Part shown: piece by piece, positions 6,444-40,798 of the stretch | Layout of the letters: each line of letters starts with the position of its first letter | Numbering within the stretch: position 1 is the first letter of the stretch | IMG/VR virus record: IMGVR_UViG_2721755657_000002 | From: a virus | Lineage: Duplodnaviria; Heunggongvirae; Uroviricota; Caudoviricetes | Length of the DNA: 44,680 nt | Strand: one strand, 5' to 3' | Program-made: the position numbers and the translations under genes | The notes under the pieces: model-generated | Seen by the model: only the letters and a program-made list of their open reading frames with translations | Databases searched by the model: none | What the model was told of the DNA's origin: nothing

Positions 6444-6457
6444 TAAAGGTGTTTTAA

Positions 6458-19166: not shown

Positions 19167-19338
19167 TTTGATTCTAATGCATTGATAATAAATGATAATC
19201 ATCTTTATCTGTTTGTGTGAAATTTAGACCGTCGTATGTTGATTATTGCGATGTTTCATCTTATCTTTTATACGTTTGCTCCATATAATTGACACTACTG
19301 TGTACCAGGACAGTCATAACAGACTAAAAGAGGAAATG

Positions 19339-20371: not shown

Positions 20372-20400
20372 CTGCCACGGGGCGGGAGCGTCGCGGAAAA
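20372..20400. other. cos site (cosN-like core)
   Basis: cacGGGGCGGGAGCGTCGCGG resembles lambda cosN GGGCGGCGACCTCGCGG; about 180 bp upstream of the terminase small subunit. Confidence 0.5.
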
Positions 20401-20575
20401 AGGCTAGTTTTTGCATTTCCATGGCGGCGGCAGCATGTTTGGTAATTTATTGATAATTAAAAGTTATTTCTCTTTTCACCTGTACAATATTTTTTTCTCC
20501 CTGTCATTAGACCAGTTTGCAATTAATTGAAATATATAAATAAACATGATTTTCACCTGCCAGATGGAGTTGCTT

Positions 20576-21103: not shown

Positions 21104-21111
21104 GAGGAATA

Positions 21112-23211
21112 ATGGGTTTTTCATCAGCCCGAAATTTGGGAAGGGACATATCGGCAGGATTTTCCCCACCACGTCGCATGCCGATTTCGGAGGCTGTTAA
21201 AAAATTCATGCGTGTTCCCAAGGGGGCTGGTAACTCGGTGCCATGGGATCCTGAACTGACACCCTACATCATTGAGCCCATGAACTGCCTGGCATCGCGT
21301 GAATACGATGCGGTGATTTTTGTTGGTCCTGCGCGAACAGGGAAGACCATTGGTCTGATCGATGGATGGATTGTCTATACCATCGTTTGCGATCCTTCGG
21401 ACATGCTCGTTGTGCAGATGACCGAAGATAAGGCCCGCGAGCATTCTAAAAAGCGCCTCGACAGAACGTTCAGAAGCAGTGCGGCGGTAAAGAAAAGAAT
21501 GAGTCCACGTCGTAACGACAATAATGTCCATGATAAGACGTTCAGGGATGGCTCGTTCCTTAAAATTGGTTGGCCCTCGGTCAACATTATGTCGTCGTCG
21601 GATTACCGGTTTGTCGCCTTAACCGATTACGACCGTTTTCCGGAGAATATCGACAGCGAGGGTGATGGTTTCTCCCTGGCCTCAAAACGTACCACCACAT
21701 TTATGTCCGCCGGGATGACTCTGGTGGAGAGCTCGCCGGGACGTGACATCTGCGACAGCAAATGGCGACGTAAGTCGCCTCATGAAGCGCCACCGACGAC
21801 TGGTATTCTTTCCCTTTACAATCGTGGTGACCGCCGCCGCTGGTACTGGTCATGTCCGCACTGCGGTGAATATTTTCAGCCAGCCATGGATGCCATGACC
21901 GGCTACCGTAATGAACCGGATCCCTTTAAAGCCAGTGAGGCGGCGTATCTACTTTGCCCGCACTGCAGCGGCATTATCACTGCGGAGAAAAAGCGTGAGC
22001 TCAATAGTGCAGGAGTCTGGTTGCGTGAAGGTCAGGTCATTGATCGTAACGGCAACGTTTCCGGTGAACCGCGCCGCTCCCGTATCGCCAGTTTCTGGAT
22101 GGAAGGGCCAGCTGCTGCGTATCAGACCTGGGCGCAACTGGTTTACAAATTACTGACTGCAGAACAGGAGTATGAAGCGACAGGAAGCGAAGAAACACTC
22201 AGGGCGGTTATCAACACCGACTGGGGATTGCCTTATCTTCCTCGTGCCAGCATGGAGCAACGAAAAAGTGAACTGCTTGAGCAGCGGGCAGAGCCAGTTC
22301 CTTCCCGCAGTGTGCCGGATGGCGTTAATTTCCTTGTGGCGACAGTGGATGTGCAGGCGGGACGTCATCGCCGTTTTGTGGTTCAGGTAACGGGCTATGG
22401 CAGTCGTGGCGAACGCTGGATTATTGATCGTTACAACATCACGCAGTCATTGCGCAGTGACTGCGACGGGGAGAGCCAGCGAATTGATCCGGCCAGCTAT
22501 CCGGAAGACTGGGATGTCCTGCTGACGGATGTTTTTCATAAAAGCTGGCCGCTGGCCTCCGATCCTTCTCAACAAATGCGACTGATGGCAATGGCGGTGG
22601 ACTCCGGCGGTGAAGACGGGGTCACTGATAATGCCTATAAATTCTGGCGTCGTTGCCGTCGTGATGGCCTTGGTAAACGTATTTACCTGTTTAAGGGTGA
22701 CAGCATCCGGCGCGCAAAACTGATCAGCCGTACATTCCCTGATAACACCGGACGAACGGGCCGCCGGGCGCAGGCCGCAGGTGATGTGCCGCTCTGGCTT
22801 CTTCAGACGGATGCCCTGAAAGACCGGGTGAATAACGCGTTATGGCGTGACTCGCCAGGTCCAGGCTATGTGCATTTCCCTGACTGGCTGGGGAGCTGGT
22901 TTTACGACGAACTGACGTATGAAGAGCGGAGCAGTGACGGGAAATGGAGTAAGCCGGGTCGCGGTGCCAACGAAGCTTTTGACCTGATGGTGTATGCCGA
23001 GGCTCTGGTCATTCTGCATGGATACGAAAAGATCCGCTGGCCGGATGCACCGGAGTGGGCGAGCCGGGAGACCTGGCTGGAGTGTGTCCAGGACAGTACC
23101 GAACCGTCATCCTCACCGGAACCGGTATCCACGCCTGTTAAAAAACAAAAACGGAAGAAAACAGTAACTGACGATGTTAACCCCTGGCTGACTTCCGGAG
23201 GATGGTTATGA
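21112..23211 (+). CDS. Terminase large subunit (lambda gpA-like)
   Basis: 699 aa; Walker A VGPARTGKT; zinc-finger-like CPHCGEYF...CPHCSG. Confidence 0.9.
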   Translation: MGFSSARNLGRDISAGFSPPRRMPISEAVKKFMRVPKGAGNSVPWDPELTPYIIEPMNCLASREYDAVIFVGPARTGKTIGLIDGWIVYTIVCDPSDMLVVQMTEDKAREHSKKRLDRTFRSSAAVKKRMSPRRNDNNVHDKTFRDGSFLKIGWPSVNIMSSSDYRFVALTDYDRFPENIDSEGDGFSLASKRTTTFMSAGMTLVESSPGRDICDSKWRRKSPHEAPPTTGILSLYNRGDRRRWYWSCPHCGEYFQPAMDAMTGYRNEPDPFKASEAAYLLCPHCSGIITAEKKRELNSAGVWLREGQVIDRNGNVSGEPRRSRIASFWMEGPAAAYQTWAQLVYKLLTAEQEYEATGSEETLRAVINTDWGLPYLPRASMEQRKSELLEQRAEPVPSRSVPDGVNFLVATVDVQAGRHRRFVVQVTGYGSRGERWIIDRYNITQSLRSDCDGESQRIDPASYPEDWDVLLTDVFHKSWPLASDPSQQMRLMAMAVDSGGEDGVTDNAYKFWRRCRRDGLGKRIYLFKGDSIRRAKLISRTFPDNTGRTGRRAQAAGDVPLWLLQTDALKDRVNNALWRDSPGPGYVHFPDWLGSWFYDELTYEERSSDGKWSKPGRGANEAFDLMVYAEALVILHGYEKIRWPDAPEWASRETWLECVQDSTEPSSSPEPVSTPVKKQKRKKTVTDDVNPWLTSGGWL

Positions 23212-23420
23212 ACCAGAATGATATCGAAGCCATGATTCAGCGTTATACGGAAGCTGAAATGGCGGTGCTGGACGGAAAATCCGTCACCTTTAATGGTCAG
23301 CAGATGACCATGGAAAACTTATCTGAGATCCGGCAGGGACGGCAGGAGTGGGAGCGCCGCCTTGCGGCTCTGATTACACGACGACGGGGGCATCCCGGGT
23401 ACCGGCTGGCGAGGTTCTGA
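23202..23420 (+). CDS. Head-tail joining protein (lambda gpW-like)
   Basis: 72 aa, C-terminal ...RRRGHPGY... ; stop overlaps portal start (TGATG). Confidence 0.7.
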   Translation: MVMNQNDIEAMIQRYTEAEMAVLDGKSVTFNGQQMTMENLSEIRQGRQEWERRLAALITRRRGHPGYRLARF

Positions 23421-24928
23421 TGGCAATTCTTGATGATGTGATTGGCGTTTTTTCACCAGGATGGAAAGCGGCAAGGCTGCGTTCCCGTGCGGTGATCCAG
23501 GCTTATGAGGCCGTAAAAACGACGCGGACACACAAAGCCCGACGGGAGAACCGAACTGCCGACCAGTTAAGCCAGTACGGGGCCGTGTCGTTACGTGAGC
23601 AGGCCCGTTACCTTGATAACAACCACGATCTGGTTATTGGTGTATTTGACAAGCTGGAAGAACGGGTGGTGGGGAAAAACGGGATTATTGTCGAGCCACA
23701 TCCGGTATTACGCAATGGGGCCATTGCCCGTGACCTGGCTGCGGAGATTCGCACCCGATGGAGTGAATGGTCTGTCAGCCCGGAAGTCACCGGGCAGTTT
23801 ACCCGTCCGATGCTGGAACGTCTGATGCTTCGTACCTGGCTGCGCGATGGTGAGGTGTTTGCCCAGATGGTTTCCGGGCGCATAAACAGCCTGGCGCCTT
23901 CTGCCGGTGTTCATTTCTGGCTGGAGGCGCTCGAGCCGGACTTTATTCCCATGACCAGTGATGAGAGCAACAGGCTGAATCAGGGCGTGTTTGTTGATGA
24001 CTGGGGGCGTCCCGAAAAATATCTGGTGTATAAAAGCCGTCCCGTATCCGGACGGCAGATGGAAACCAAAGAAGTGGATGCAGAGCGAATGCTGCATCTT
24101 AAATTTGTTCGCCGTCTGCACCAGATGCGCGGGACGTCTTTGTTGTCCGGTGTGCTGATCCGCCTCAGTGCCCTGAAAGAATATGAAGATTCTGAGCTGA
24201 CTGCAGCAAGGATCGCCGCTGCTCTGGGGATGTACATCCGGAAAGGCGACGGGCAGAGCTATGAACCGGATGGTAATGGCAGAAAGGAGAATGAACGTGA
24301 GCTTACCATTCAGCCGGGCATTATTTACGACGATCTGAAACCCGGCGAAGAAATCGGAATGGTGAAGTCGGATCGCCCCAATCCTAACCTTGAAACTTTT
24401 CGTAATGGTCAGTTGCGTGCCGTGGCGGCGGGCAGTCGTCTGAGTTTTTCCAGTACAGCGCGCAACTATAACGGCACTTACAGCGCCCAGCGTCAGGAGC
24501 TGGTTGAATCCACTGATGGCTACCTGATCCTGCAGGACTGGTTTATTGGTGCCGTCACCCGCCCGATGTATCGTGCATGGCTGAAACAGGCTGTGGCATC
24601 CGGTGTTATCAGGCTACCCCGCGATCTTGACCGTTCTTCACTGTATACCGCGGTGTATTCCGGACCAGTGATGCCGTGGATTGACCCTGTTAAGGAGGCT
24701 GAGGCCTGGAAAATCCAGATTCGTGGTGGAGCGGCGACAGAATCAGACTGGGTACGTGCTGGTGGTCGTAATCCGGATGATGTCAAACGTCGGCGCAAGG
24801 CCGAAATTGATGAAAACCGCAATCTGGATCTGGTATTTGATACCGATCCGGCCAGTGATAAAGGAGGCAGTAGTGCCGCAACGAAACGACAGGAGCCGCA
24901 GCACACCGACGACCAGTCCGAAGAATAA
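23420..24928 (+). CDS. Portal protein (lambda gpB family)
   Basis: 502 aa from MAILDDVIGVFSPGWK...; between W and protease. Confidence 0.9.
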   Translation: MAILDDVIGVFSPGWKAARLRSRAVIQAYEAVKTTRTHKARRENRTADQLSQYGAVSLREQARYLDNNHDLVIGVFDKLEERVVGKNGIIVEPHPVLRNGAIARDLAAEIRTRWSEWSVSPEVTGQFTRPMLERLMLRTWLRDGEVFAQMVSGRINSLAPSAGVHFWLEALEPDFIPMTSDESNRLNQGVFVDDWGRPEKYLVYKSRPVSGRQMETKEVDAERMLHLKFVRRLHQMRGTSLLSGVLIRLSALKEYEDSELTAARIAAALGMYIRKGDGQSYEPDGNGRKENERELTIQPGIIYDDLKPGEEIGMVKSDRPNPNLETFRNGQLRAVAAGSRLSFSSTARNYNGTYSAQRQELVESTDGYLILQDWFIGAVTRPMYRAWLKQAVASGVIRLPRDLDRSSLYTAVYSGPVMPWIDPVKEAEAWKIQIRGGAATESDWVRAGGRNPDDVKRRRKAEIDENRNLDLVFDTDPASDKGGSSAATKRQEPQHTDDQSEE

Positions 24929-26900
24929 TTCCTGGTTCAGGATGCAGGCTGGTCACCAGAGTGACGCGGATATTTATATTTATGACGAGATTGGTTTCTG
25001 GGGTGTTACAGCGAAGCAGTTTATCAGTGATCTGAATGCACTGGGCGATATCACCCACATTAATCTCCATATTAATTCACCGGGTGGCGATGTCTTTGAA
25101 GGCATCGCCATTTTTAATGCGCTGAAAACACATGGTGCGTCCATTACCGTTTATGTCGACGGTGTGGCGGCGTCAATGGCGTCGGTCATTGCGATGGTAG
25201 GAAATCCGGTCATTATGCCGGAAAACACCTTCATGATGATTCATAAACCATTTGGCTTTACGGGCGGTGATGCGGAGGACATGCGCACCTATGCCGACCT
25301 GCTCGATAGAGTTGAGGCGGTTCTGTTACCCGCTTATGCACAGAAAACCGGGAAAACCACCGATGAAATTGCTGCCATGCTGGCGGATGAGACCTGGATG
25401 TCCGGTGCCGAATGTCTGGCACAGGGATTTGCTGATCAGGTGACACCAGCCGTTAAGGCAATGGCATGTATTCAGTCAAAACGTACAGAGGAATTTAAAA
25501 AGATGCCGGAATCCATTCGAAATATGATTACTCCGCCACGCAACAGTGCTCCACGCGTACAGGATGATGGACCTGCAGCCTCCCGGACGCCAGTGCAGGC
25601 AGCAGCACCCGTGGTGGATGAAAACAGCATCCGTGCGCAGGTCCTGGCAGAGCAAAAAGCGCGTGTAAACGGTATTAATGATCTGTTTGCCATGTTTGGC
25701 GGGCGTTATCAGTCGTTGCAGGCTCAGTGTCTTGCCGATCCTGAATGTTCGCTGGAGCAGGCCCGCGAAAAGCTGTTGAACGAGATGGGGCGCGAGTCCA
25801 CGCCATCCAATAAAAATACCCCGGCTCATATTTATGCCGGTAACGGTAATTTTGTGGGGGACGGGATCCGCCAGGCGCTGATGGCGCGCGCCGGGTTTGA
25901 AAAAACTGAACGTGATAATGTCTACAACGGGATGACCCTGCGTGAATATGCCCGTATGTCACTGACTGAACGTGGTATTGGTGTTTCCAGTTATAACCCG
26001 ATGCAGATGGTCGGTGCGGCGTTCATACACAGTACGTCTGACTTCGGTAATATTCTGCTGGATGTTGCGAACAAAGCCATTCTGCAGGGCTGGGAAGATG
26101 CCCCTGAAACCTATGAACAGTGGACGCGGAAAGGTCAGTTGTCTGATTTTAAAATTGCCCATCGTGTGGGTATGGGGGGCTTCAGTGCTCTGCGTCAGGT
26201 GCGTGAAGGGGCAGAATATAAATACGTCACCACCGGAGATAAACAGGCCACTATTGCACTGGCGACCTATGGCGAGCTGTTCAGTATCACCCGTCAGGCC
26301 ATTATCAATGATGATCTGAATATGCTGACCGATGTCCCGATGAAGCTGGGCCGTGCGGCGAAATCCACTATTGCCGATCTGGTTTATGCCATTCTGACGT
26401 CTAACCCGAAAATCTCCACAGATAATGTAAGTCTGTTCGATAAAGCGAAACATGCAAACGTACTGGAGAGCGCGGCAATGGACGTGGCATCGCTGGATAA
26501 AGCCCGCCAGTTGATGCGCGTTCAGAAAGAGGGTGAGCGTCATCTGAATATTCGTCCTGCGTTCGTACTGGTACCGACGGCGATGGAGTCTGTTGCTAAC
26601 CAGGTCATTCGCTCCTCAAGTGTCAAGGGGGCTGACATTAACGCCGGTATTATTAACCCGGTGAAAGATTTTGCGACCGTTATTGCAGAGCCTCGTCTTG
26701 ATGATAACAGCCAGACCACCTTCTACCTGGCTGCGTCCAAAGGCTCCGATACGATTGAAGTGGCTTATCTCAACGGTGTGGATACGCCATATATTGATCA
26801 GATGGAGGGCTTCAGTGTGGATGGCGTGACAACGAAAGTGCGTATTGACGCTGGTGTTGCGCCAGTTGATCACCGCGGCCTGGTGAAATGTACGGCGTAA
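24873..26900 (+). CDS. Prohead protease (ClpP-like, S49) - scaffold - major capsid fusion protein
   Basis: N-terminal ...IYIYDEIGFWG...INSPGGDVFEG...MASVIAMVG...; C-terminal capsid-like region; GTG start with AAGGAGG 5 nt upstream (alternative ATG at 24942). Confidence 0.8.
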   Translation: MPQRNDRSRSTPTTSPKNNSWFRMQAGHQSDADIYIYDEIGFWGVTAKQFISDLNALGDITHINLHINSPGGDVFEGIAIFNALKTHGASITVYVDGVAASMASVIAMVGNPVIMPENTFMMIHKPFGFTGGDAEDMRTYADLLDRVEAVLLPAYAQKTGKTTDEIAAMLADETWMSGAECLAQGFADQVTPAVKAMACIQSKRTEEFKKMPESIRNMITPPRNSAPRVQDDGPAASRTPVQAAAPVVDENSIRAQVLAEQKARVNGINDLFAMFGGRYQSLQAQCLADPECSLEQAREKLLNEMGRESTPSNKNTPAHIYAGNGNFVGDGIRQALMARAGFEKTERDNVYNGMTLREYARMSLTERGIGVSSYNPMQMVGAAFIHSTSDFGNILLDVANKAILQGWEDAPETYEQWTRKGQLSDFKIAHRVGMGGFSALRQVREGAEYKYVTTGDKQATIALATYGELFSITRQAIINDDLNMLTDVPMKLGRAAKSTIADLVYAILTSNPKISTDNVSLFDKAKHANVLESAAMDVASLDKARQLMRVQKEGERHLNIRPAFVLVPTAMESVANQVIRSSSVKGADINAGIINPVKDFATVIAEPRLDDNSQTTFYLAASKGSDTIEVAYLNGVDTPYIDQMEGFSVDGVTTKVRIDAGVAPVDHRGLVKCTA

Positions 26901-26923
26901 ACGTCGCAGACAACAACTCTGAT

Positions 26924-26946
26924 GGCCCGTAAGGGCTTTTTTTGTA
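26924..26946 (+). terminator. Hairpin plus T-run after the capsid gene
   Basis: GGCCCGTAAGGGC followed by TTTTTTTG. Confidence 0.45.
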
Positions 26947-26986
26947 CCTGAAATCAGCCCCTGAACGGGGCTGTGCGGAGACAGTT

Positions 26987-27310
26987 ATGGCAAAGAATTT
27001 TGTAGAAGAAGGAAAAACGGTGGCGATTGTTGCAAGTGCAGCCATCAGCAGCGGAGATCTGGTGCAGGTGGGTGATGTTTTTGCGGTGGCGCTGACCGAT
27101 ATTCCACAGGGAGAAACAGGCGACGGCATAACCGAAGGTGTGTTTATGCTGCCTAAGCTGAAAACGGATGACATGAAAACGGGTAAGAAGGTTTATCTGA
27201 AGTCAGGAAAAGTTCAGCTGACTAACAGCGGCTCTGATCCGCTGGTCGGGGTTGTCTGGGCAGATGCCGGAACCAGTGCAGAAGAAGTGCCGGTAAAACT
27301 CAATGTCTGA
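26987..27310 (+). CDS. Head-associated structural protein (DUF2190-like; possible decoration protein)
   Basis: 108-aa MAKNFVEEGKTVAIVASAAISSGDLVQVG... Confidence 0.5.
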   Translation: MAKNFVEEGKTVAIVASAAISSGDLVQVGDVFAVALTDIPQGETGDGITEGVFMLPKLKTDDMKTGKKVYLKSGKVQLTNSGSDPLVGVVWADAGTSAEEVPVKLNV

Positions 27311-27578
27311 TCCCTTTTCCCGGCTGGCAGCGCGTATGGATGCGATCACGGTCAGAAAGATGGGAAAGACAGCCTCGATTAATGATGTCGATATGACTGT
27401 GATCCCGGGAGAAACACTGGCAGAGCTGAATGCTCTTTCCGGACCTGCGGTCTCTCTGGTGGTGTTTTCTTCGGGATACCGCCCACGGCGCGGGGATCGC
27501 GTTGTTTATGACGGACAACAATGGACGGTCACACGGCATGAACGTTTTAACGGTAAGCCAATGATCTTTATTGAGTAA
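27303..27578 (+). CDS. Head-tail connector / head completion protein
   Basis: 91-aa ORF in the FII position between capsid and gpZ. Confidence 0.5.
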   Translation: MSDPFSRLAARMDAITVRKMGKTASINDVDMTVIPGETLAELNALSGPAVSLVVFSSGYRPRRGDRVVYDGQQWTVTRHERFNGKPMIFIE

Positions 27579-28168
27579 TGAGGTGTGGGATGAAGGGGCT
27601 TGAGAATGCCATCCGCAATCTGAACAGCCTTGATACCCGTATGGTGCCACAGGCCAGCGCATGGGCGATAAACCGTGTGGCACAGAAAGCGGTCTCGGTT
27701 GCCACCCGGCAGGTTGCCGGGAATACCGTTGCGGGAGATAACCAGGTGAAAGGGATCCCCCTGAAACTGGTACGTCAGCGTGTCCGGGTGTTTAAAGCCA
27801 GTCCGTCAGGAAAAATGACGGCCAGGATCCGCGTTAACCGGGGCAATCTGCCCGCCATTAAGCTGGGGACAGCCCGGGTCAGACTGGCCCGGCGTGGTGG
27901 AAAACTGCAGTACCGTGGCAGTGTGCTGAAGGTGGGTAAATATCTTTTCCGGGATGCGTTTATTCAGCAACTGGCGAATGGTCGCTGGCATGTGATGCGA
28001 CGTATTGATGGCAAAAATCGTTACCCCATTGATGTGGTGAAAATCCCGCTGTCCGGACCGCTGACACAGGCATTTGAAGATGCCCGCGACCACATCATTG
28101 CTGCGGAAATGCCGAAACAGCTGGGGTATGCACTGAAACAACAACTGAGGTTATGGCTGACCCGATGA
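27578..28168 (+). CDS. Minor tail protein Z-like
   Basis: 196-aa ORF immediately upstream of gpU; alternative start MKGLENA at 27590. Confidence 0.6.
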   Translation: MRCGMKGLENAIRNLNSLDTRMVPQASAWAINRVAQKAVSVATRQVAGNTVAGDNQVKGIPLKLVRQRVRVFKASPSGKMTARIRVNRGNLPAIKLGTARVRLARRGGKLQYRGSVLKVGKYLFRDAFIQQLANGRWHVMRRIDGKNRYPIDVVKIPLSGPLTQAFEDARDHIIAAEMPKQLGYALKQQLRLWLTR

Positions 28169-28566
28169 ACCGACATACACAAATCCGCCAGGTCGTACTG
28201 GCACGCCTTCGGGAACAGTGTGGAGACAGCGCCACGTTTTTTGACGGGCTTCCGGCATTTGTTGATGCGCAGGAACTGCCTGCCGTGGCGGTGTGGCTGA
28301 GTGATGCTCAGTACACCGGAAAAATGACGGATGAAGATGACTGGCAGGCTGTTCTGCATATTGCTGTCTTCATCCGGGCAGAGGCACCGGATTCAGAGCT
28401 GGATATGTGGATGGAGAGCACCATTTTCCCGGCCCTGAATGATGTACCAGCACTTTCCGGACTCATCGACACCCTGATCCCACTCGGTTTTAACTATCAA
28501 CGTGATAATGAGATGGCCACCTGGGCGATGGCGGAAATCACGTACCAGATCACGTACACGAATTAA
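28165..28566 (+). CDS. Tail terminator protein (lambda gpU-like)
   Basis: ...ATFFDGLPAFVDAQELPAVAVWLSDAQYTG...ELDMWMES... parallels lambda U. Confidence 0.8.
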   Translation: MNRHTQIRQVVLARLREQCGDSATFFDGLPAFVDAQELPAVAVWLSDAQYTGKMTDEDDWQAVLHIAVFIRAEAPDSELDMWMESTIFPALNDVPALSGLIDTLIPLGFNYQRDNEMATWAMAEITYQITYTN

Positions 28567-28576
28567 GGAGGTGGTA

Positions 28577-29320
28577 ATGACCACACCAAATCCACTGGCA
28601 AAAACGAAAGGTGCGGGAACGACGTTCTGGATGTATACCGGCAAGGGCGATGCGTTTGTGAACCCTTTATCGGACACTGACTGGCTGCGTCTTGCGATGG
28701 TGAAGGATCTGCAACCTGGCGAAATGACCGCTGATGCAGAAGATGACACTTATCTCGATGATGAAGATGCAGACTGGAAAACGACAACCCAGGGGCAGAA
28801 ATCAGTCGGTGATACTTCGGCGACGCTGGCCTGGCGTCCGGGGGACAGCGGGCAGAAAAAACTGGTTCAGTTGTTCGACTCCGGTGAAGTCTGCGCGTTT
28901 CGTATCAAATATCCCAACGGTACTGTTGATGTTTTCCGTGGCTGGCTGAGTTCACTGGGTAAAACCATTGCTTCAAAAGGCGTGATGACCCGCACAGTGA
29001 AAATCAGCGGTGTGGGGCGTCCGTATCTGGCAGAGGAAGGCACTGAAACCGTGGGCGTTACCGGGCTGACGGTGGCACCGGCATCTGCCAGTGTAAAAGT
29101 GGGAGCAACCACCACGCTGACCTTTACAGTAAAACCTGACGGAGCCAGTGACAAAGCGATCAGTGTGCATTCGACAGATCCACAGACTGCCACGGTGACC
29201 CTGAACGGGCTTGTGGCCACGGTGAAAGGCGTGAAGCAGGGCAGTGTCAGCATTGTGGGCATGACTTCTGACGGCGATTTTGTGGCAGTGGCTACGGTGG
29301 CTGTCAGCGCCGCAGGTTAA
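28577..29320 (+). CDS. Major tail protein (lambda gpV-like) with C-terminal Ig-like domain
   Basis: AAGGAGG RBS; 247 aa; C-terminal Big_2-like ...TGLTVAPASASVKVGATTTLTFTVKPDG... Confidence 0.85.
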   Translation: MTTPNPLAKTKGAGTTFWMYTGKGDAFVNPLSDTDWLRLAMVKDLQPGEMTADAEDDTYLDDEDADWKTTTQGQKSVGDTSATLAWRPGDSGQKKLVQLFDSGEVCAFRIKYPNGTVDVFRGWLSSLGKTIASKGVMTRTVKISGVGRPYLAEEGTETVGVTGLTVAPASASVKVGATTTLTFTVKPDGASDKAISVHSTDPQTATVTLNGLVATVKGVKQGSVSIVGMTSDGDFVAVATVAVSAAG

Positions 29321-29340
29321 CAGGACGATACTCATCATTT

Positions 29341-29365
29341 GCCCCGGTTATCCGGGGCTTTTTTG
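29341..29365 (+). terminator. Hairpin plus T-run after the major tail gene
   Basis: GCCCCGGTTATCCGGGGC followed by TTTTTTG. Confidence 0.5.
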
Positions 29366-29377
29366 CAGGTGGAGAAC

Positions 29378-29767
29378 ATGATGTTTCTGAAACAGGGCAC
29401 GTTTAATTATGAAAAGCAGTCCGTGGTGCTCAGTGAGCTGTCCGGGCTGCAGAGAATTGAATATCTGGCGTTTGTTCAGCAGCGAACGGCAAAGTTTGAT
29501 GCCGAAGAGGGAGAACTGCCGGAGGCTGAACGACAGATTGCTTTTCTGCGGATGGGGATGGATATCAATGCCTGGCTGGTTTCCCGCTCACTGTGGAATG
29601 CGGAACAGTCTCAGGATGTTGAGACGCTTTGCGCATCCGTTATTACAACATGGTCGTATGATGCCCTGGGAACGGGGGCGGAGATGGTTCTGTCGCTGAG
29701 CGGTATGGAAGCCATTGAGAATGCCGGGGATTTGGAGCATGAGGTGCTGACGCCGGAAAAGTCCTGA
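29378..29767 (+). CDS. Tail assembly chaperone (lambda gpG-like)
   Basis: MMFLKQGTFNYEKQSVVLSELSGLQRIEYLA... parallels lambda G N-terminus. Confidence 0.8.
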   Translation: MMFLKQGTFNYEKQSVVLSELSGLQRIEYLAFVQQRTAKFDAEEGELPEAERQIAFLRMGMDINAWLVSRSLWNAEQSQDVETLCASVITTWSYDALGTGAEMVLSLSGMEAIENAGDLEHEVLTPEKS

Positions 29768-30105
29768 CGCGGGAAATGCAGTTTGTCATGCGGCTTGCCC
29801 GGGAGTTCAGGCGGGCAGACTGGCGGCGGATGCTGTCGGAAATGTCGGCCACTGAGCTTGGTGAGTGGGGCGATTATTTCCGGATGCAGAGCTTCAGTGA
29901 TGTGTGGATGGATGCGCAGTTTGCCTCGCTGAAGGCATTGATCGTGAGAATGGTGTCCGGCAGCAGTGATGCTGCGGTGGCTGATTTCAGCCTTTTACCG
30001 GAAGAGAACGGGATACCGGAGCGAACGGACGAAGAACTGATGCATCTTGGGGAAGGTATTTCCGGAGGTGTGCGTTATGGACCAGATAGCCAACCTGGTC
30101 ATTGA
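29378..30105 (+). CDS. Tail assembly chaperone GT, product of -1 programmed frameshift from G into the T frame
   Basis: T-frame ORF (to 30105) is open from 29743 and offset -1 from G; shift must occur within ccgGAAAAGtcc (29753-29764). Confidence 0.55.
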
Positions 30106-33100
30106 TTTGGGGATTGATGCGGCAGAGTTTAAAAATGAAATTCCCCGTATCAAAAACCTTCTGAATGGTGCAGCCAGCGATGCAGAACGGTCTTCTGCCC
30201 GTATGCAGCGTTTTATGGAGCGTCAGACTCAGGCCGCCCGGCAGACAACGCAGGCGGCTTCTTCGGCTGCAACAGCCGCATCCGTCCATGCGCAGACGGT
30301 GGAGAAGAACGCACAGGCTCATGAACGCATGGCCCGCGAGGTGGAGAAAACCCGCCAGCGCATGGAGGCGCTGAGCCAGAAAATGCGCGAGGAACAGGCG
30401 CAGGCCATGGCTCTGGCGGAGGCTCAGGATAAAGCGGCTGCTGCGTTTTATCGTCAGATTGACAGTGTGAAACAGGCCAGTGCGGGGCTGCAGGAATTAC
30501 AGCGTATTCAGCAGCAGATCCGACAGGCCAGAAACAGTGGCGGGATTGGTCAGCAGGATTATCTGGCGCTGATTTCTGAGGTTACTGCGAAAACCCGTGT
30601 TCTTACACAGGCTGAGGAAGAGGCTACCCGACAGAAAGTGGCGTTTATCCGTCAGCTTAAAGAGCAGGCAACCCGCCAGAATCTTTCATCTTCTGAGTTG
30701 CTTCGTGCCAAGGCAGCCCAGCTGGGGGTAAGCAGTGCTGCAGAAGTGTATATCCGCAAAATGGAGCAGGCAGGAAAAGCCACGCATTCGCTGGGTCTGA
30801 AAAGTGCAGCAGCCCGCCAGGAGATAGGCGTTCTGATAGGTGAACTGGCCCGCGGCAATTTAGGGGCGCTGAGGGGATCCGGGATAACGCTGGCTAACCG
30901 TGCCGGATGGATAGACACACTGATGTCACCGAAAGGCATGATGCTTGGCGGGGTTATTGGCGGTATTGCCGCGGCCGTCTATGGTCTGGGTAAAGCCTGG
31001 TATGACGGTCAGAAGGAGGGGGAAGAATTTAACCGCCAGTTGTCGCTGACGGGGCATTATGCCGGAGTCACTGCCGGGCAGCTGTGGACGCTCAGTCGTG
31101 CTATTTCCGGGAATGGTATCACGCAACATGCTGCAGCCGGTGCGCTGGCTCAGGTGGTGGGGAGTGGTGCATTTCGTGGAAACGATATCGGTATGGTGGC
31201 GAGAGCTGCCGCACAGATGGAGCGATCGGTTGGCCAGTCGGTCAGCGATACCATAAATCAGTTTAAGCGGCTGAAGGATGATCCTGTAAATGCCGCGAAG
31301 GCTCTGGACAATGAGCTGCATTTTCTTACTGCCACTCAGCTTGAGCAGATACGCGTCCTTGGGGAGCAGGGGCGGTCCAGTGATGCTGCACGGATAGCCA
31401 TGTCTGCACTGGCAGAGGAAACCGGTCGGCGTACTGCGGATATTGATAATAACCTCAATGCGCTTGGCAGTACGCTGAAGTATCTGTCTGATTTGTGGAG
31501 TCGTTTCTGGGATGCGGCCATGAATATTGGTCGTGAAGACTCGCTGGATGAACAGATTGCCGCTTTACAGGAGAAAGTGTCGCGGGCGAAAAGACTCCCC
31601 TGGACGGCATCATCTTCTCAGGTTGAATACGATCAGCAGCGTCTTAACGATCTTCAGGAGAAAAAACGCCAGAAGGATTTGCAGGATGCAAAAGAGCAGG
31701 CAGAGCGGAATTATCAGGAGCAACAGAAACGACGTAATGCTGAAAATGCTGCTCTGAACCGGATGAATGAAACGGAAGCAGCACGACATCAGCGTGAAAT
31801 TGCGCGTATTAATTCCATGCAGTACGCCGATCAGGCTGTCAGGGATGCAGCGATACAACGTGAAAATGAACGTTACGAGAAAGCCCTGGCATCCGGTAAG
31901 AAAAAAACACGCGAAACCCGTAATGATGAGGCCACCCGGTTATTGCTGCAGTACAGTCAGCAACAGGCACAGGTGGAAGGACAGATTGCTGCTGCAAGAC
32001 AGTCAGCAGGCATTGCCACTGAAAAGATGACAGAAGCGCATAAACAGCTTCTGGCTCTGCAGCAGCGCATCAGCGATCTGGACGGGAAAAAACTGACGGC
32101 AGATGAAAAGAGTGTGCTGGCCCGTAAAGATGAACTGATTCAGGCACTGACGCTGCTGGATGTAAAACAGCAGGAACTTCAGAAACAGACGGCACTCAAC
32201 GATCTGAAGAAAAAAACAATTCAGCTGACCAGTCAACTGGCTGAAGAAGAGCGCGCTCAGCGCCAGCAACATGACCTGCATATCGCCACGGTGGGTATGG
32301 GTGATCAGCAGCGGCAGCGATATCAGGTACAACTGAGTCTTCGCCAGAAATACCAGCAACAGCTGGAGCAGTTGAGGCGGGATAGTGAGCAGAAAGGGAC
32401 ATATAACACGGATGACTACAGAAAGGCCGAGCAGGCGCTGACGGAGAGCCTGAACCGACAACTGAATGAGAATCGCCGTTACTGGCAACAGCTTGAAGTT
32501 GTGCAGGGTAACTGGAAAAACGGAGTCCTGCGTGCATTTCAGGATTTTACCGTGGATGCAGATAATACGGCAGGAACAGCAGAACAGGTGTTCTCGTCAG
32601 CCTTCAGCAACATGGGAAATGGCCTGGCAACTTTTGTCACTACCGGCAAACTCAACTTCAAATCCTTCACCTCTTCGGTGCTGTCAGATATGGCGAAAAT
32701 CCTGGCGCAGGCAACCATGATGAAATCGATAAAAGGGATTGGCAGTGTACTGGGATTTGATCTCAGCAGCCTTTCCCTGAATGCCAATGGGGGGATTTAT
32801 CAGTCTGCTGATTTGAGTCGTTACAGTGGCACGGTGGTTAACCGTCCGACGTTTTTTGCTTTTGCAAAAGGCGCGGGTGTGATGGGGGAAGCTGGACCTG
32901 AAGCCATTCTGCCACTGCGTCGTGGTGCTGACGGTAAGCTGGGGGTTGTGGCGGATATTGGTGGTTCAGGTATGGCGATGTTTGCCCCGCAGTACAACAT
33001 CGAGATCAATAACGATGGCACGAACGGGCAGATAGGTCCGGCTGCCCTGAAGGTGGTTTATGACCTTGGGAAAAAAGCGGCAGCGGACTTTATGCAACAG

Positions 33101-33142
33101 CAGGCCCGTGATGGTGGTCGGTTAAGTGGAGCATATCGGTAA
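30077..33142 (+). CDS. Tail tape measure protein (lambda gpH-like)
   Basis: 1021 aa, coiled-coil-rich, C-terminal ...NNDGTNGQIGPAALKVVYDLGKKAAADFMQQQARDGG... Confidence 0.9.
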   Translation: MDQIANLVIDLGIDAAEFKNEIPRIKNLLNGAASDAERSSARMQRFMERQTQAARQTTQAASSAATAASVHAQTVEKNAQAHERMAREVEKTRQRMEALSQKMREEQAQAMALAEAQDKAAAAFYRQIDSVKQASAGLQELQRIQQQIRQARNSGGIGQQDYLALISEVTAKTRVLTQAEEEATRQKVAFIRQLKEQATRQNLSSSELLRAKAAQLGVSSAAEVYIRKMEQAGKATHSLGLKSAAARQEIGVLIGELARGNLGALRGSGITLANRAGWIDTLMSPKGMMLGGVIGGIAAAVYGLGKAWYDGQKEGEEFNRQLSLTGHYAGVTAGQLWTLSRAISGNGITQHAAAGALAQVVGSGAFRGNDIGMVARAAAQMERSVGQSVSDTINQFKRLKDDPVNAAKALDNELHFLTATQLEQIRVLGEQGRSSDAARIAMSALAEETGRRTADIDNNLNALGSTLKYLSDLWSRFWDAAMNIGREDSLDEQIAALQEKVSRAKRLPWTASSSQVEYDQQRLNDLQEKKRQKDLQDAKEQAERNYQEQQKRRNAENAALNRMNETEAARHQREIARINSMQYADQAVRDAAIQRENERYEKALASGKKKTRETRNDEATRLLLQYSQQQAQVEGQIAAARQSAGIATEKMTEAHKQLLALQQRISDLDGKKLTADEKSVLARKDELIQALTLLDVKQQELQKQTALNDLKKKTIQLTSQLAEEERAQRQQHDLHIATVGMGDQQRQRYQVQLSLRQKYQQQLEQLRRDSEQKGTYNTDDYRKAEQALTESLNRQLNENRRYWQQLEVVQGNWKNGVLRAFQDFTVDADNTAGTAEQVFSSAFSNMGNGLATFVTTGKLNFKSFTSSVLSDMAKILAQATMMKSIKGIGSVLGFDLSSLSLNANGGIYQSADLSRYSGTVVNRPTFFAFAKGAGVMGEAGPEAILPLRRGADGKLGVVADIGGSGMAMFAPQYNIEINNDGTNGQIGPAALKVVYDLGKKAAADFMQQQARDGGRLSGAYR

Positions 33143-33471
33143 TGGAGACGTTTCACTGGAAAGTGCGCCCGGATATGAATGTGGTATCAGAGCCGAAAGT
33201 GGTGACAGTGAAGCTGGGCGATGGTTATGAACAGCGTCGTGCGGCGGGACTGAATAACCAGTTGTCGATTTACAGCGTGACGATACGTGTTCGTAAATGT
33301 GAACACCCATCTTTAAAAGCCTTTCTGGAACGGCACGGTGGCGTCCGCGCATTTCAGTGGACGCCACCTTATGACTGGAAGCCGATCAGGGTGGTTTGTC
33401 GTAAATGGTCGGCAAGCGTGGGGGCGTTGTGGGTAACCATAACGGCAGATTTTGAACAGGTCGTGGCATAG
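33142..33471 (+). CDS. Minor tail protein M
   Basis: 109 aa, same length and position as lambda M. Confidence 0.85.
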   Translation: METFHWKVRPDMNVVSEPKVVTVKLGDGYEQRRAAGLNNQLSIYSVTIRVRKCEHPSLKAFLERHGGVRAFQWTPPYDWKPIRVVCRKWSASVGALWVTITADFEQVVA

Positions 33472-33480
33472 GAGTCTCTG

Positions 33481-34179
33481 ATGCAGGATATTCCACAGGA
33501 AACACATCATGAGACGACATGCCTCACTCAGTCAGCCCAGGTGGTGCTCTGGGAAATCGATCTGACAGTGGTCGGTGGAGAACGTTATTTTTTCTGTAAT
33601 GAGCAGAACGATAAAGGTGAGCCGGTCACCTGGCAGGGGCGACAGTATCAGGCGTATCCCATTCAGGGGACGGGATTTGAACTGAACGGCAAAGGCAGTG
33701 CTGCCCGTCCGACACTGACGGTTTCTAACCTGCACGGCATGGTCACCGGGATGGCGGAAGACCTGCAGAGTCTGGTCGGAGGAACGGTGGTCCGGCGTAA
33801 GGTTTACGCCCGTTTTCTGGATGCGGTGAACTTCGTCAACGGAAACAGTGACGCCGATCCGGAGCAGGAGGTGATCAGCCGCTGGCGCATTGAGCAGTGC
33901 AGCGAACTGAGCGCGGTGAGTGCCTCTTTTGTACTGGCCACGCCGACGGAAACGGACGGCGCTGTTTTTCCGGGACGTATCATGCTGGCCAACACCTGCA
34001 CCTGGACCTATCGCGGCGATGAGTGCGGTTATCACGGTCCGGCGGTCGCGGATGAATATGACCAGCCAACGTCCGATATCACGAAGGATAAATGCAGCAA
34101 ATGCCTGAGCGGTTGTAAGTTCCGCAATAACGTCGGCAACTTTGGCGGCTTCCTTTCCATTAACAAACTTTCGCAGTGA
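33481..34179 (+). CDS. Minor tail protein L
   Basis: 232 aa, same length and position as lambda L; C-terminal Cys cluster. Confidence 0.85.
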
Positions 34180-36971
34180 ATCCCATGACAGAGACAGAAT
34201 CAGCGATTCTGGCGCACGCCCGGCGATGTGCGCCAGCAGAGTCGTGCGGCTTCGTGGTGAGAACACCGGAGGGGGAAAGATATTTTCCCTGCGTGAATAT
34301 CTCCGGTGAGCCGGAGGCGTATTTCCGGATGTCGCCGGAGGACTGGCTGCGGGCAGAGATGCAGGGTGAGATTGTGGCGCTGGTCCACAGCCACCCCGGT
34401 GGTCTGCCCTGGCTGAGTGAGACCGACCGGCGGCTGCAGGTGCAGAGTGATTTGCCGTGGTGGCTGGTTTGCCGGGGGGCGATTCACAAGTTCCGCTGTG
34501 TGCCACATCTTTCCGGGCGGCGCTTTGAGCACGGGGTGACGGACTGTTACACGCTGTTCCGGGATGCTTACCATCTGGCGGGGATTGAGATGCCGGATTT
34601 TCATCGCGAGGATGACTGGTGGCGTCACGGTCAGAATCTCTATCTGGGATCAGATAAGGTGTGGACCTATAACCGCAGTAATGTGGTGATGCCGGATGAT
34701 GGCGCGCCGTTCCGCTACAGCTTCAGCGCCCTGAAGGACCGCCATAATGCCGTTGAGGTGAACTGGATTGACCCGGATAACGGCTGGGAGACGGCGACAG
34801 AGCTTGTGGAGGACACGCAGGCCATTGCCCGTTACGGTCGTAACGTCACGAAGATGGATGCCTTTGGCTGTACCAGTCGGGGGCAGGCACACCGCGCCGG
34901 GCTGTGGCTGATTAAAACAGAACTGCTGGAAACGCAGACCGTGGATTTCAGCGTGGGTGCTGAAGGGCTTCGCCATGTACCGGGCGATGTCATTGAAATC
35001 TGTGATGATGACTATGCCGGTATCAGCACCGGTGGTCGTGTGCTGGCGGTGAACAGCCAGACCCGGACGCTGACGCTCGACCGTGAAATCACGCTGCCAT
35101 CCTCCGGTACCACGCTGATAAGCCTGGTTGACGGAAGTGGCAATCCGGTCAGCGTGGAGGTTCAGTCCGTCACCGACGGCGTGAAGGTAAAAGTGAGCCG
35201 TGTTCCTGACGGCGTTGCCGGATACAGCGTATGGGGGCTGAAGCTGCCGACGCTGCGCCAGCGCCTGTTCCGCTGCGTGAGTATCCGTGAGAACGACGAC
35301 GGCACGTATGCCATCACCGCCGTGCAGCATGTGCCGGAAAAAGAGGCCATCGTGGATAACGGGGCGCACTTTGACGGCGAACAGAGTGGCACGGTGAATG
35401 GTGTCACGCCGCCAGCGGTGCAGCACCTGACTGCCGAAGTCACCGCAGACAGCGGGGAATATCAGGTGCTGGCGCGCTGGGACACGCCGAAGGTGGTGAA
35501 GGGGGTGAGCTTTATGCTTCGCCTGACCGTGGCCGCGGATGAAGGCAGTGAGCGGCTGGTCAGCACGGCCCGGACGGCGGAAACCACATACCGCTTCACG
35601 CAACTGGCGCTGGGGAACTACAGGCTGACAGTCCGGGCAGTAAATGCCTGGGGGCAGCAGGGAGACCCGGCGTCGGTATCGTTCCGGATTGCCGCCCCGG
35701 CAGCGCCGTCGCGGATTGAGCTGACACCGGGCTATTTTCAGATAACCGCCACGCCGCATCTTGCGGTTTATGACCCGACGGTACAGTTTGAGTTCTGGTT
35801 CTCGGAAAAACGGATTGCTGATATCAGGCAGGTTGAAACCACAGCCCGCTATCTTGGCACGGCGCTGTACTGGATAGCTGCCAGTATCAATATCAAACCG
35901 GGCCATGATTATTACTTTTATATCCGCAGTGTGAACACCGTTGGCAAATCGGCATTCGTGGAGGCCGTCGGTCGGGCGAGCGATGATGCGGAAGGTTACC
36001 TGGATTTTTTCAAAGGCCAGATAACCGAATCCCATCTCGGTAAAGAGCTGCTGGAAAAAGTCGATCTGACGGAGGATAACTCCAGCAGACTGGATGAGTT
36101 TTCGAAAGAGTGGAAGGATGCCAACGATAAATGGAATGCCATGTGGGCTGTCAAAATTGAGCAGACCAAAGACGGCAAACATTATGTCGCGGGTATTGGC
36201 CTCAGTATGGAGGACACGGAGGAAGGCAAACTGAGCCAGTTTCTGGTTGCCGCTAACCGTATCGCGTTTATTGACCCGGCAAACGGGAATGAAACGCCGA
36301 TGTTTGTGGCGCAGGGCAACCAGATATTCATGAACGACGTGTTCCTGAAGCGCCTGACAGCCCCCGCCATTACCAGCGGTGGCAGTCCTCCGGTATTTTC
36401 CCTGACATCAGACGGAAAGCTGACCGCTAAAAATGCGGATATCAGTGGTAGTGTGAATGCGAACTCAGGAACGCTCAACAATGTCACGATTAACCAGAAC
36501 TGTACGATTAAGGGCATGCTGGAGGCGACCCAGGTCAGAGGGGATTTCGTTAAAGCTGTATCAAAAGCCTTCCCGAAAAAAGTCGGTACGTGGGGTAACA
36601 CGGAAACACCAAACGGTACGGTTACAGTCACCATCAGCGATGATCATAACTTTGACCGCCAGATTATTATTCCGCCCATTATTTTTAACGGTATAGCGTA
36701 TGACGATCCGGGGAGCGGAAATAACCCGGGAGGCACGCGATACACGGGTTATGGTTTTGAAGTTCGCAAAAACGGCGTATTAATCGCATCCAGAGAAACT
36801 AAAGGGGCCATTCCCGGTAGTTACAGTGCAGTTATTGATATGCCTAGTGGTGGTGGTAGCGTCACTCTGGAGTTTAAGATTTTCCAGAAAGGCAATCAGG
36901 GGGCAGGCAATATCACCGACTGTACGGTGATTGTGACCAAAAAAGCGGCTTCCGGCATCAGTATTCGTTGA
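34176..36971 (+). CDS. In-frame K'-'J fusion: tail assembly protein K N-terminal region (JAB/MPN plus part of NlpC/P60) joined to the C-terminal about 770 aa of tip attachment protein J
   Basis: N-terminus has ...[12 protein letters not shown]... (JAMM) and ...[17 protein letters not shown]... (NlpC/P60 Cys), then switches at about residue 160 (...[14 protein letters not shown]...) into J-like sequence with FN3-like repeats; no gene I and no J N-terminal region present. Confidence 0.7.
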
Positions 36972-37041: not shown

Positions 37042-37641
37042 ATGCGTAAAGTTTGTGCCGCCATTTTGTCCGCAGCCATTTGTCTGGCCGTATCCGGTGC
37101 GCCTGCATGGGCGTCTGAACATCAGTCCACGCTGAGCGCGGGGTATCTTCATGCCCGGACCAACGTTCCCGGCAGTGATGATCTGAACGGGATTAACGTG
37201 AAATACCGTTATGAGTTTACGGATACGCTGGGGCTGGTGACGTCATTCAGCTATGCAGGAGACAAGAATCGCCAGCTGACCCGTTACAGCGATACCCGCT
37301 GGCATGAAGATTCCGTTCGTAACCGCTGGTTCAGCGTAATGGCGGGGCCGTCTGTGCGCGTGAATGAATGGTTCAGCGCGTATGCGATGGCGGGTGTGGC
37401 TTACAGCCGTGTGTCGACTTTCTCCGGGGATTATCTCCGCGTAACTGACAACAAGGGGAAAACGCACGACGTGCTGACCGGAAGTGATGACGGTCGCCAC
37501 AGCAACACGTCTCTGGCGTGGGGAGCTGGCGTGCAGTTTAACCCGACCGAATCCGTGGCCATTGATATTGCTTATGAAGGCTCCGGCAGTGGCGACTGGC
37601 GCACTGACGGTTTCATCGTGGGTGTCGGTTATAAGTTCTGA
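37042..37641 (+). CDS. lom: Outer-membrane protein Lom (Ail/Lom family beta-barrel)
   Basis: Signal peptide plus alternating beta-strand pattern, terminal ...GVGYKF; lambda lom position between J and stf. Confidence 0.85.
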   Translation: MRKVCAAILSAAICLAVSGAPAWASEHQSTLSAGYLHARTNVPGSDDLNGINVKYRYEFTDTLGLVTSFSYAGDKNRQLTRYSDTRWHEDSVRNRWFSVMAGPSVRVNEWFSAYAMAGVAYSRVSTFSGDYLRVTDNKGKTHDVLTGSDDGRHSNTSLAWGAGVQFNPTESVAIDIAYEGSGSGDWRTDGFIVGVGYKF

Positions 37642-37705: not shown

Positions 37706-40700
37706 ATGGCAGTAAAGATTTCAGGTGTACTGAAAGACGGCACAGGAAAACCGGTACAGAACTGCACAATCCAGCTGAAAGCAAAACGTAACAGCACCAC
37801 GGTGGTGGTGAACACGCTGGCCTCAGAAAATCCGGATGAAGCCGGGCGTTACAGCATGGACGTTGAGTACGGTCAGTACAGCGTTATTCTGTTGGTGGAA
37901 GGATTCCCGCCGTCACATGCCGGGACCATCACCGTGTATGAAGATTCCCGACCCGGTACGCTGAATGATTTTCTCGGTGCCATGACGGAGGATGATGCCC
38001 GTCCGGAGGCTCTGCGCCGTTTTGAACTGATGGTGGAAGAGGTGGCGCGTAACGCGTCCGCGGTGGCACAGAACACGGCAGCCGCGAAGAAGTCAGCCAG
38101 TGATGCCGGCACATCTGCCCGTGAGGCGGCAACCCATGCGACTGATGCTGCAGGCTCAGCGCGTGCAGCCAGCACGTCAGCCGGACAGGCCGCGACTTCG
38201 GCTCAGGAGGCGTCTTCCAGCGCAGGAACGGCATCAACAAAGGCCACTGAAGCATCAAAAAGTGCTGCCGCTGCAGAGTCCTCAAAAAGCGCGGCGGCCA
38301 CCAGTGCCGGTGCGGCGAAAACGTCAGAAACGAATGCTGCAGCGTCACAAAAATCAGCAGCCACTTCTGCATCCACTGCGACGACGAAAGCGTCAGAAGC
38401 CGCCACTTCAGCCAGAGATGCGGCGGCCTCCAAAGAGGCGGCAAAATCATCAGAAACGAACGCCTCCACAAGCGCCAGCAGTGCAGCCTCCTCGGCAACG
38501 GCGGCAGGAAATTCCGTGAAGGCGGCAAAAACGTCCGAGACGAATGCCAGGTCTTCTGAAACGGCAGCGGAACAGAGCGCCTCAGCTGCGGCAGACTCTG
38601 AGACAGCAGCTGCATCATCGGCCCGTGAGGCGTCCATTAAGGCAGAGGAGGCAGCAGTCAGTGCCACCGCCGCCGGAAAATCGGCAGAAAGCGCCGCATC
38701 GTCTGCTTCAACAGCCACAACGAAGGCTGGCGAAGCCACTGAACAGGCCAGCGCAGCAGCGAGGTCTGCTTCCGCAGCGAAGACATCCGAAACGAACGCG
38801 AAAGCGTCGGAAACCAGCGCAGAATCCTCAAAAACGGCTGCCGCATCGTCAGCCAGTTCGGCGGCGTCATCGGCATCATCGGCGTCTGCTTCAAAAGATG
38901 AGGCGACCAGACAAGCGTCAGCAGCGAAGAGCAGCGCCACGACGGCATCCACGAAGGCGACAGAGGCTGCTGGCAGTGCGGCAGCGGCAGCACAGAGCAA
39001 AAGTACGGCGGAATCCGCGGCAACGCGCGCCGAGACAGCAGCAAAACGGGCAGAGGATATTGCATCCGCCGTGGCGCTTGAGGATGCGAGCACGACGAAA
39101 AAGGGGATAGTACAGCTCAGCAGTGCGACCAACAGCACTTCCGAGTCACAGGCGGCAACGCCAAAAGCCGTTAAGGCCGCGTATGACCTGGCTAACGGGA
39201 AATACACCGCACAGGATGCAACGACAGCACAGAAAGGGATAGTTCAGCTCAGCAGTGCGACCAACAGCACTTCCGAGTCACAGGCGGCAACGGCAAAAGC
39301 CGTTAAGGCCGCGTATGACCTGGCTAACGGGAAATACACCGCACAGGATGCAACGACAGCACAGAAAGGGATAGTTCAGCTCAGCAGTGCGACTAACAGC
39401 ATTTCCGAGTCACAGGCGGCAACGCCAAAAGCCGTTAAGGCCGCGTATGACCTGGCTAACGGGAAATACACCGCACAGGACGCTACGACAGCACAAAAAG
39501 GAATTGTCCAGCTCAGTAGTGCAACCAACAGCACATCTGAAACGCTTGCTGCGACACCGAAAGCAGTGAAAGCAGCTAATGACAATGCGAATGGTCGGGT
39601 ACCTTCTGCCCGTAAGGTGAATGGTAAGGCGCTTTCAGCGGATATAACACTGACGCCGAAAGATATTGGTACGCTTAACTCAACAACAATGTCATTCAGC
39701 GGTGGTGCTGGTTGGTTCAAATTAGCAACGGTAACCATGCCACAGGCGAGTTCTGTTGTTTCAATTACGTTGATTGGTGGCGCTGGATTTAACGTGGGGT
39801 CACCTCAACAGGCAGGTATATCTGAACTTGTTTTACGTGCAGGTAATGGTAATCCGAAGGGGATTACTGGTGCTTTATGGCAGCGCACATCGACAGGGTT
39901 TACAAATTTTGCCTGGGTCAATACATCTGGTGATACTTACGATATTTACGTTGCAATCGGAAATTATGCGACTGGTGTAAATATTCAATGGGATTATACC
40001 AGTAATGCCAGCGTGACGATTCATACGTCACCAGCATATTCTGCTAATAAGCCGGAAGGGTTAACGGACGGTACAGTTTATTCACTCTATACGCCATCAG
40101 AGCAGTTTTATCCGCCTGGCGCACCAATCCCGTGGCCATCAGATACCGTTCCGTCTGGCTATGCCCTAATGCAGGGGCAGACTTTTGACAAATCTGCATA
40201 CCCGAAACTTGCAGCCGCTTATCCGTCAGGCGTGATCCCTGATATGCGTGGCTGGACGATTAAGGGCAAACCTGCCAGTGGTCGGGCCGTATTGTCTCAG
40301 GAACAGGACGGCATTAAATCGCATACCCACAGCGCCAGCGCATCCAGTACGGATTTGGGGACGAAAACCACATCGTCGTTTGATTACGGCACTAAATCCA
40401 CGAATAACACTGGTGCGCATACCCATAGTTTAAGTGGCAGCACGAATGCAGCTGGTAATCACAGCCATAGAGATGGCCGTCGATTTAACCCCAGTGTTTT
40501 TAAAGATACTTATCAATATGGTTATACAAGCTCAGGTCAAAATACCTGGGGTGTACAAGGCTCAGTAGGTATGTCTACGGGGTGGTTAGCGAATACCAGT
40601 ACAGATGGTAATCATAGCCATTCACTGTCCGGCACAGCAGCATCTGCAGGTGCACACGCGCATACTGTCGGTATTGGTGCTCATACGCACTCCGTTGCGA

Positions 40701-40798
40701 TTGGTTCACATGGACACACCATCACCGTTAACGCTGCTGGTAACGCGGAAAACACCGTCAAAAACATCGCATTTAACTATATTGTGAGGCTTGCATAA
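37706..40798 (+). CDS. stf: Side tail fibre protein (Stf)
   Basis: N-terminus [34 protein letters not shown]... ; long Ala/Ser/Thr-rich shaft; tandem 44-aa repeats; C-terminal HxH repeats (GAHTHSLSG...GNHSHSLSG...GAHAHTVG...GAHTHSVA...GSHGHTI). Confidence 0.85.
39091..39600 (+). repeat. About 3.8 tandem copies of a 132-bp (44-aa) coding repeat inside stf
   Basis: Near-identical units encoding [44 protein letters not shown]. Confidence 0.8.

Follow-up and report, generated by a model that had tools for sequence, protein, structure and literature searches.

The Qin prophage of Escherichia coli K-12 has lost nearly all of its structural genes. Prophages occupying the Qin attachment site are reported to range from 11 to 97 kb in size (PMC6379469). 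The gene order M-L-K-I-J-lom-stf-tfa is the same in lambda, in the mEp460 group of phages and, apart from the lesion described below, in the stretch of DNA analyzed here in full (44,680 nucleotides, hereafter the window). In the classical lambda genetics of Katsura and Kuhl, J, and then I, L, and K, are reported to act at the start of tail assembly. Published lambda structures describe gpI as a plug of the tail tube that binds the C-terminus of the tape-measure protein. The N-terminal region of J forms the last tail ring together with gpL and binds gpI (PMC10721106), and gpK is absent from the virion, yet is required for tail assembly (PMC12617516).

Here, we show using protein and DNA alignments, complemented with profile searches and surveys of public sequence collections, that the tail genes K and J of the window are joined in frame into a single open reading frame (ORF), and that gene I and parts of both K and J are gone. 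We consider it very probable that a single recent illegitimate deletion within an otherwise intact Qin-type, mEp460-like prophage gave rise to this chimera and left tail assembly defective.

Results

Judged by its gene content, the window represents a Qin-type lambdoid prophage of full length, located at ydfJ, the Qin attachment site (PMC6379469). A search of the flanks identified a tyrosine integrase, an excisionase, and an exonuclease at the left end, and tfaQ, pinQ, ydfK, and ynfT followed by a 5′-truncated ydfJ at the right end. Membership of the Qin type is apparent from the terminal integrase and the truncated ydfJ, together with dicB, DicF, hokD/sok, cspI, pinQ, and tfaQ. Four RNA elements score above the Rfam gathering score: the DicF sRNA (4756-4807, minus strand), the sok antitoxin RNA beside hokD (10807-10981, plus strand), a cspA-type thermoregulator upstream of cspI (18294-18710, plus strand) and the IS009 sRNA within the 3′ end of tfa (41141-41339, plus strand).

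The nearest complete genome is that of E. coli SC480 (NZ_LR778153.1), in which the corresponding prophage is collinear with the window. Positions 1-34648 of the window match 98-34745 of the SC480 locus (L003) with 4 mismatches and no gaps, and positions 34649-44680 match L003 36723-46754 with 54 mismatches and no gaps. At the gap between these two blocks, SC480 has separate K, I, and J genes. K and I are 247 and 182 aa long, the lengths annotated in this phage group, which replace the approximately 200 and 220 aa assumed in the preliminary description of the locus. All remaining genes for head, tail, lysis, and regulation that are annotated in the SC480 prophage occur in the window at unchanged length. 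The differences from SC480 that are nearest to the junction are found at 28381 on the left and at 34955 on the right, the first 306 bases rightward being identical; as the deletion thus sits inside more than 6.5 kb that are identical to SC480, it is a recent event. The gene for gpJ in SC480 (L003 35631..39045) is itself annotated as frameshifted, owing to one extra base near L003 36256-36333. This base may reflect an error in the sequencing of SC480; if it does not, the SC480 prophage may be tail-defective as well.

The window also carries cargo outside the tail region. In the early region, a 444-aa FRG-domain protein (8840..10174, minus strand) matches PDC-S15, a PADLOC candidate anti-phage defense family (E = 7e-99); in SC480, the annotation of this gene goes no further than "FRG domain-containing protein". 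Non-phage cargo genes (13546..16342) separate the Q antiterminator from the lysis genes; they encode a lipocalin on the minus strand, a YbgA-like 2-thiouracil desulfurase/DUF1722 protein, and an AraC-type regulator.

In the tail region, the ORF listing contains one plus-strand ORF at 34176..36971 with a GTG start and a length of 931 aa. The GTG at 34176 overlaps the stop codon of L, and an ATG at 34185 lies six bases past this stop. As the relatives are annotated with K starting at the ATG equivalent to window position 34185, the likely product is 928 aa long, and this start is more likely than the mechanically assigned GTG. The chimeric K'-'J ORF is therefore placed at 34185..36971 on the plus strand, based on the ORF listing, Pfam, and BLASTP, with the start taken from the annotation of the relatives. 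The mass of the chimera is roughly 101 kDa, and residue numbers in the protein comparisons refer to the 928-aa product. The neighboring genes on the plus strand are intact according to the ORF listing, Pfam, and the SC480 annotation: M (33142..33471) and L (33481..34179) are upstream, the latter directly so, and lom (37042..37641), the side tail fiber gene stf (37706..40798, 1030 aa), and tfa (40798..41373) are downstream. On the minus strand opposite the fusion, the ORFs at 34650..36182, 33532..34506, and 36182..34 have no Pfam match and are therefore treated as shadow ORFs. A PADLOC scan of the fusion likewise returned no match.

BLASTP comparison with the intact proteins divides the fusion into two parts on either side of a single junction glycine, residue 155. 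Residues 1-154 correspond to residues 1-154 of K (152/154 identities, 99%), and residues 156-928 correspond to residues 365-1137 of J (757/773 identities, 98%). At the DNA level, the K' segment (34185..34648, plus strand; Pfam, BLASTP) consists of K codons 1-154 and two bases of the junction codon, and the 'J segment (34649..36971, plus strand; Pfam, BLASTP, PDB match, NCBIfam) of J codons 365-1137 and the stop codon. Absent from the fusion are K residues 155-247 (93 residues), the entire I protein, and J residues 1-364. The alignment to intact K, I, and J of the relatives thus bears out the in-frame K'-'J fusion that had been proposed from the sequence at first reading, and BLASTP and the DNA alignments agree with the loss of I, of the C-terminal part of K, and of the N-terminal third of J that had been proposed with it. 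The switch from K to J, originally placed near residue 160 or nucleotide 34650, occurs at residue 158 of the 931-aa ORF, between nucleotides 34648 and 34649. That the sequence resumes within J also holds, with the point of resumption moved from about residue 400 to residue 365.

The missing parts are not encoded elsewhere in the window. The I protein gave no match below E = 2.8 against the fusion (BLASTP) and none below E = 3.4 against the whole window (tblastn), and neither the K C-terminus, nor I, nor the J N-terminus was found at another place in the window by tblastn and blastn; the window thus contains no I-like coding sequence. K, I, and J are intact in mEp460_ev081, mEp460, HannyBb, and Tritos, whose structural modules share 96-97% identity with that of the window. 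Separate K and I genes followed by a J of full length, the arrangement against which the preliminary description had set its own reading, are therefore seen in the relatives and not in the window.

The domain content of the fusion agrees with these boundaries. On the K side, Prok-JAB is found at residues 7-101 (51 bits against a Pfam cut-off of 25), and the JAB/MPN domain is complete with an intact JAMM motif, H-x-H-x7-S-x2-D, at residues 68-81. The NlpC/P60 cysteine, Cys121, is retained along with approximately the first 44 residues of this domain, and the K stretch downstream of Cys121 that bears the histidines (NHAAIY, LHHIPEQ) is lost. Hence the fusion has the JAB/MPN domain of K but not a complete NlpC/P60 domain with both its Cys and the downstream His; the K-like JAB/MPN and NlpC/P60 motifs and the missing NlpC/P60 histidines had both been recognized correctly beforehand. 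In Pfam searches, the fusion matches neither NLPC_P60 nor FNIII-A_GpJ (PF24801), whereas the intact K and J of mEp460_ev081, used as controls, match these two families, respectively. Phage-tail_3 is represented by its distal part only (profile positions 35-162 of 164), while Ig_J, Ig_J_second, Phage_Tail_Tip, and Ig_GpJ_C are all present above their cut-offs. The 'J part therefore keeps two Ig/FNIII domains, the helical shaft, the central fiber, and the C-terminal receptor-binding domain, and the fusion matches residues 364-1131 of chain J in PDB entry 8iyk. In the intact relatives, NLPC_P60 extends over K residues 111-224 and is cut at 154, and Phage-tail_3 extends over J residues 330-498 and is cut at 365. 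As both break points fall within Pfam domains, the fusion does not combine complete modules; taken together with published cryo-EM structures, the Pfam boundaries place both break points inside folded domains.

Can the fusion still be called J? Against the NCBIfam model for full-length lambda J (NF049904, lambda_TipJ; cut-off 1950 bits), the fusion scores 1421.6 bits and aligns with model positions 365-1163 only, compared to 2277.4 bits over positions 1-1163 for the intact mEp460_ev081 J as control. Below the cut-off, the fusion would not be named a full-length J by the NCBI model. In terms of domains, the N-terminal hub of J (the HDII-insertion with FNIII-A, and HDII) is missing, and the distal Ig/FNIII domains, fiber, and receptor-binding domain are present. 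The concern that annotation pipelines may call an intact J is thus weakened by the lambda_TipJ score; simpler pipelines that transfer the name of the best hit could still label the fusion "host specificity protein J".

The junction was located by alignment to mEp460_ev081 and SC480, between 34648 and 34649, with CTATCTGGG to its left and ATCAGATAAGG to its right; the 35-mer CAGAATCTCTATCTGGGATCAGATAAGGTGTGGAC identifies the junction allele. Window positions 33100-34647 align with 1501-3048 of the mEp460_ev081 locus (L001), and positions 34649-37700 with L001 5026-8076. The stretch that is missing amounts to 1976 nt relative to mEp460_ev081 and 1977 nt relative to SC480, the difference being due to the one extra base that the SC480 J carries inside this stretch; the initial estimate of about 2 kb was close. 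The parental frames of K and J differ, and a loss of 1976 nt, a multiple of three plus two, joins them, giving a hybrid junction codon with GG to the left and A to the right of the junction (Gly155). Such an in-frame outcome is expected by chance in one deletion in three.

The two parental end points share no microhomology at the joint, are not flanked by direct or inverted repeats, have no in-register repeat within 40 nt, and have no in-register k-mer of 6 or more bases in common. A GATC at the junction was created by the join. It is absent from both parental ends, on which ground an origin by restriction and ligation was rejected. With neither microhomology nor an in-register repeat, and with a newly created GATC, the junction points to homology-independent illegitimate joining rather than to slippage, homologous recombination, or restriction-ligation. 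In E. coli, joins without microhomology are less common than microhomology-mediated deletions.

A junction without microhomology and with flanks nearly identical to an intact relative is also what a chimeric read, a misjoin in the assembly, or an edited sequence might leave behind, in which case the real K, I, and J would be intact, and the rarity of the junction fits such an artifact as well. In a search of 5,426 complete E. coli genomes, one or both halves of the junction query were found in 4,483, with a median of 4 places per genome, but no place reached a coverage of 80% of the query. Neither exact nor degenerate junction patterns occur in the GTDB representatives, the JGI metagenomes, or IMG/VR, and the product, searched with four alternative starts, is absent among 15 billion proteins. 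The stf allele of the window is likewise not on record. A query of 160 aa centered on the junction, compared with 5.8 billion protein clusters, retrieved proteins that match K only or J only, none of which spans the junction. The top match (P0001) was rejected as a fusion, as it is a K protein with an internal duplication, and the "72% coverage" of many K matches reflects over-extension of BLAST alignments into unrelated sequence.

However, a collapse during assembly needs a repeat at both ends, which does not exist here, and the window holds no second copy of the deleted segment. Nor is the window simply a database genome from which a piece was removed, as the best complete genome still differs from it at 58 positions. 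Moreover, comparable chimeras produced by deletion are common in real E. coli assemblies. We therefore regard an artifact as improbable. Other lambdoid tail chimeras in public E. coli data include a J'-'Lom (P0059), a K'-'Lom (P0086), and a J fused at about residue 357 to an unrelated N-terminus (P0053), from which it follows that deletion-derived fusion ORFs are common debris in lambdoid tail regions. The junction described here is a previously unrecorded allele, and both the process, prophage inactivation by deletion, and the gene block that it affects are very well known.

The differences between the window and SC480 are unevenly distributed, with 54 in the right-hand 10 kb versus 4 in the left-hand 34.6 kb, and they are clustered at 34955-34961 and 36359-36408 in J and at 38701-39402 in the stf repeats. 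The repeat region of stf holds most of them; at 39100-39583, it consists of diverged tandem repeats of ~132 nt with self-matches of 88-94% and four Phage_fiber_2 repeats. This clustering suggests that other lambdoid prophages have been partners in patchy gene conversion. It might also be read as a sign that the junction itself arose by recombination between two lambdoid prophages, one of which supplied K and the other J. However, a long distance separates the junction from the clusters in J and in the stf repeats, SC480 and the window do not differ in the first 306 bases rightward of the junction, and the collinearity with SC480 reaches the same ydfJ flank, a pattern that fits later patchy gene conversion. 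As an exchange between prophages at different sites would alter the right flank, which is still that of Qin, we consider recombination between two prophages extremely improbable as the origin of the junction.

Discussion

What would the loss of these three tail functions mean for the prophage? On the reading that we prefer, a deletion of ~1976 bp, extending from K codon 155 to J codon 364, would have occurred in the prophage residing at ydfJ. The resulting chimera would be translated from the K start just past the stop codon of L, presumably at the expression level of K, and would combine a complete JAB domain with interrupted NlpC/P60 and J hub domains and with the full distal fiber and receptor-binding domain. 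As gpI, a complete gpK, and the J N-terminus are lost, tail assembly should fail at its start, and the prophage, if induced alone, would be expected to produce DNA-filled heads without tails. The deletion, its end points, its recency, and the domains lost with it can be read from the alignments; the assembly defect is what we infer from the published structure and genetics of lambda. As the fusion preserves the reading frame, lom, stf, and tfa are not expected to suffer polar effects.

Could the chimera instead have been retained because it serves a function, either as a soluble fiber that blocks receptors or as part of a tail tip in which JAB replaces the J hub? All 928 codons are open, neither the JAMM motif nor any of the distal J domains, the receptor-binding domain included, is damaged, and C-terminal fragments of J have been solved on their own as trimers, with LamB in 8xcj and 8xck (PMC11101478). 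Nonetheless, one deletion in three would preserve the frame without any selection, and the deletion, so young that 4 differences in 34.6 kb separate the window from an intact relative, has left selection too little time to become visible. The architecture occurs in no other sequence searched, each of the break points interrupts a folded domain, and J no longer has the parts of its hub by which it is connected to L, M, and I. In addition, the chimera presumably has neither a signal peptide nor any route to the surface other than lysis. We therefore hold a retained, functional chimera to be very improbable. The same low probability applies to its most specific form, in which a stable trimeric J fiber with an active JAB cap would be made upon induction and released by lysis, block the receptor on adjacent cells, and protect kin from mEp460-type phages; if true, it would represent an accidental step toward a domesticated receptor-blocking protein.

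With deletion and a loss of tail assembly as the preferred reading, it is plausible that co-resident lambdoid prophages rescue the defect, either in trans or by recombination. In the E. coli genomes with any sequence similar to the K or J half of the junction query, the median number of such places is 4, so that donors for such a rescue are common. Similarly, many of the defective lambdoid prophages of E. coli O157 Sakai are inducible and some are transferable, which the authors credit to interaction and recombination between prophages (PMC2669165).

The locus presents a clean and datable first inactivating step of prophage decay, and its importance is limited, as it does not indicate new biology. 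It does illustrate that an open, J-like ORF of 928 codons can mask the fact that three essential genes have been lost, which is relevant to predictors of prophage completeness and to the annotation of host-range proteins.

In conclusion, the window combines features of several described systems. Its structural module shares 95-97% DNA identity with the mEp460 group (mEp460, mEp460_ev081, HannyBb, Tritos, and the cdtI phage), but unlike these phages the window is without 1976-1977 bp of K-I-J, and the remainders are fused in frame. It resembles the prophage pool of O157 Sakai (Asadulghani et al, 2009), in which lambdoid prophages carry individual lesions in morphogenesis genes, and for which induction and transfer have been observed. 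With the Qin prophage of K-12, it shares the ydfJ site as well as dicA, dicB, dicC, DicF, hokD/sok, ydfU, and cspI, together with essD, rrrQ, pinQ, tfaQ, ydfK, and ynfT. In contrast to K-12 Qin, however, the copy in the window is nearly complete at ~44 kb and, except for the lesion described here, retains all head and tail genes.
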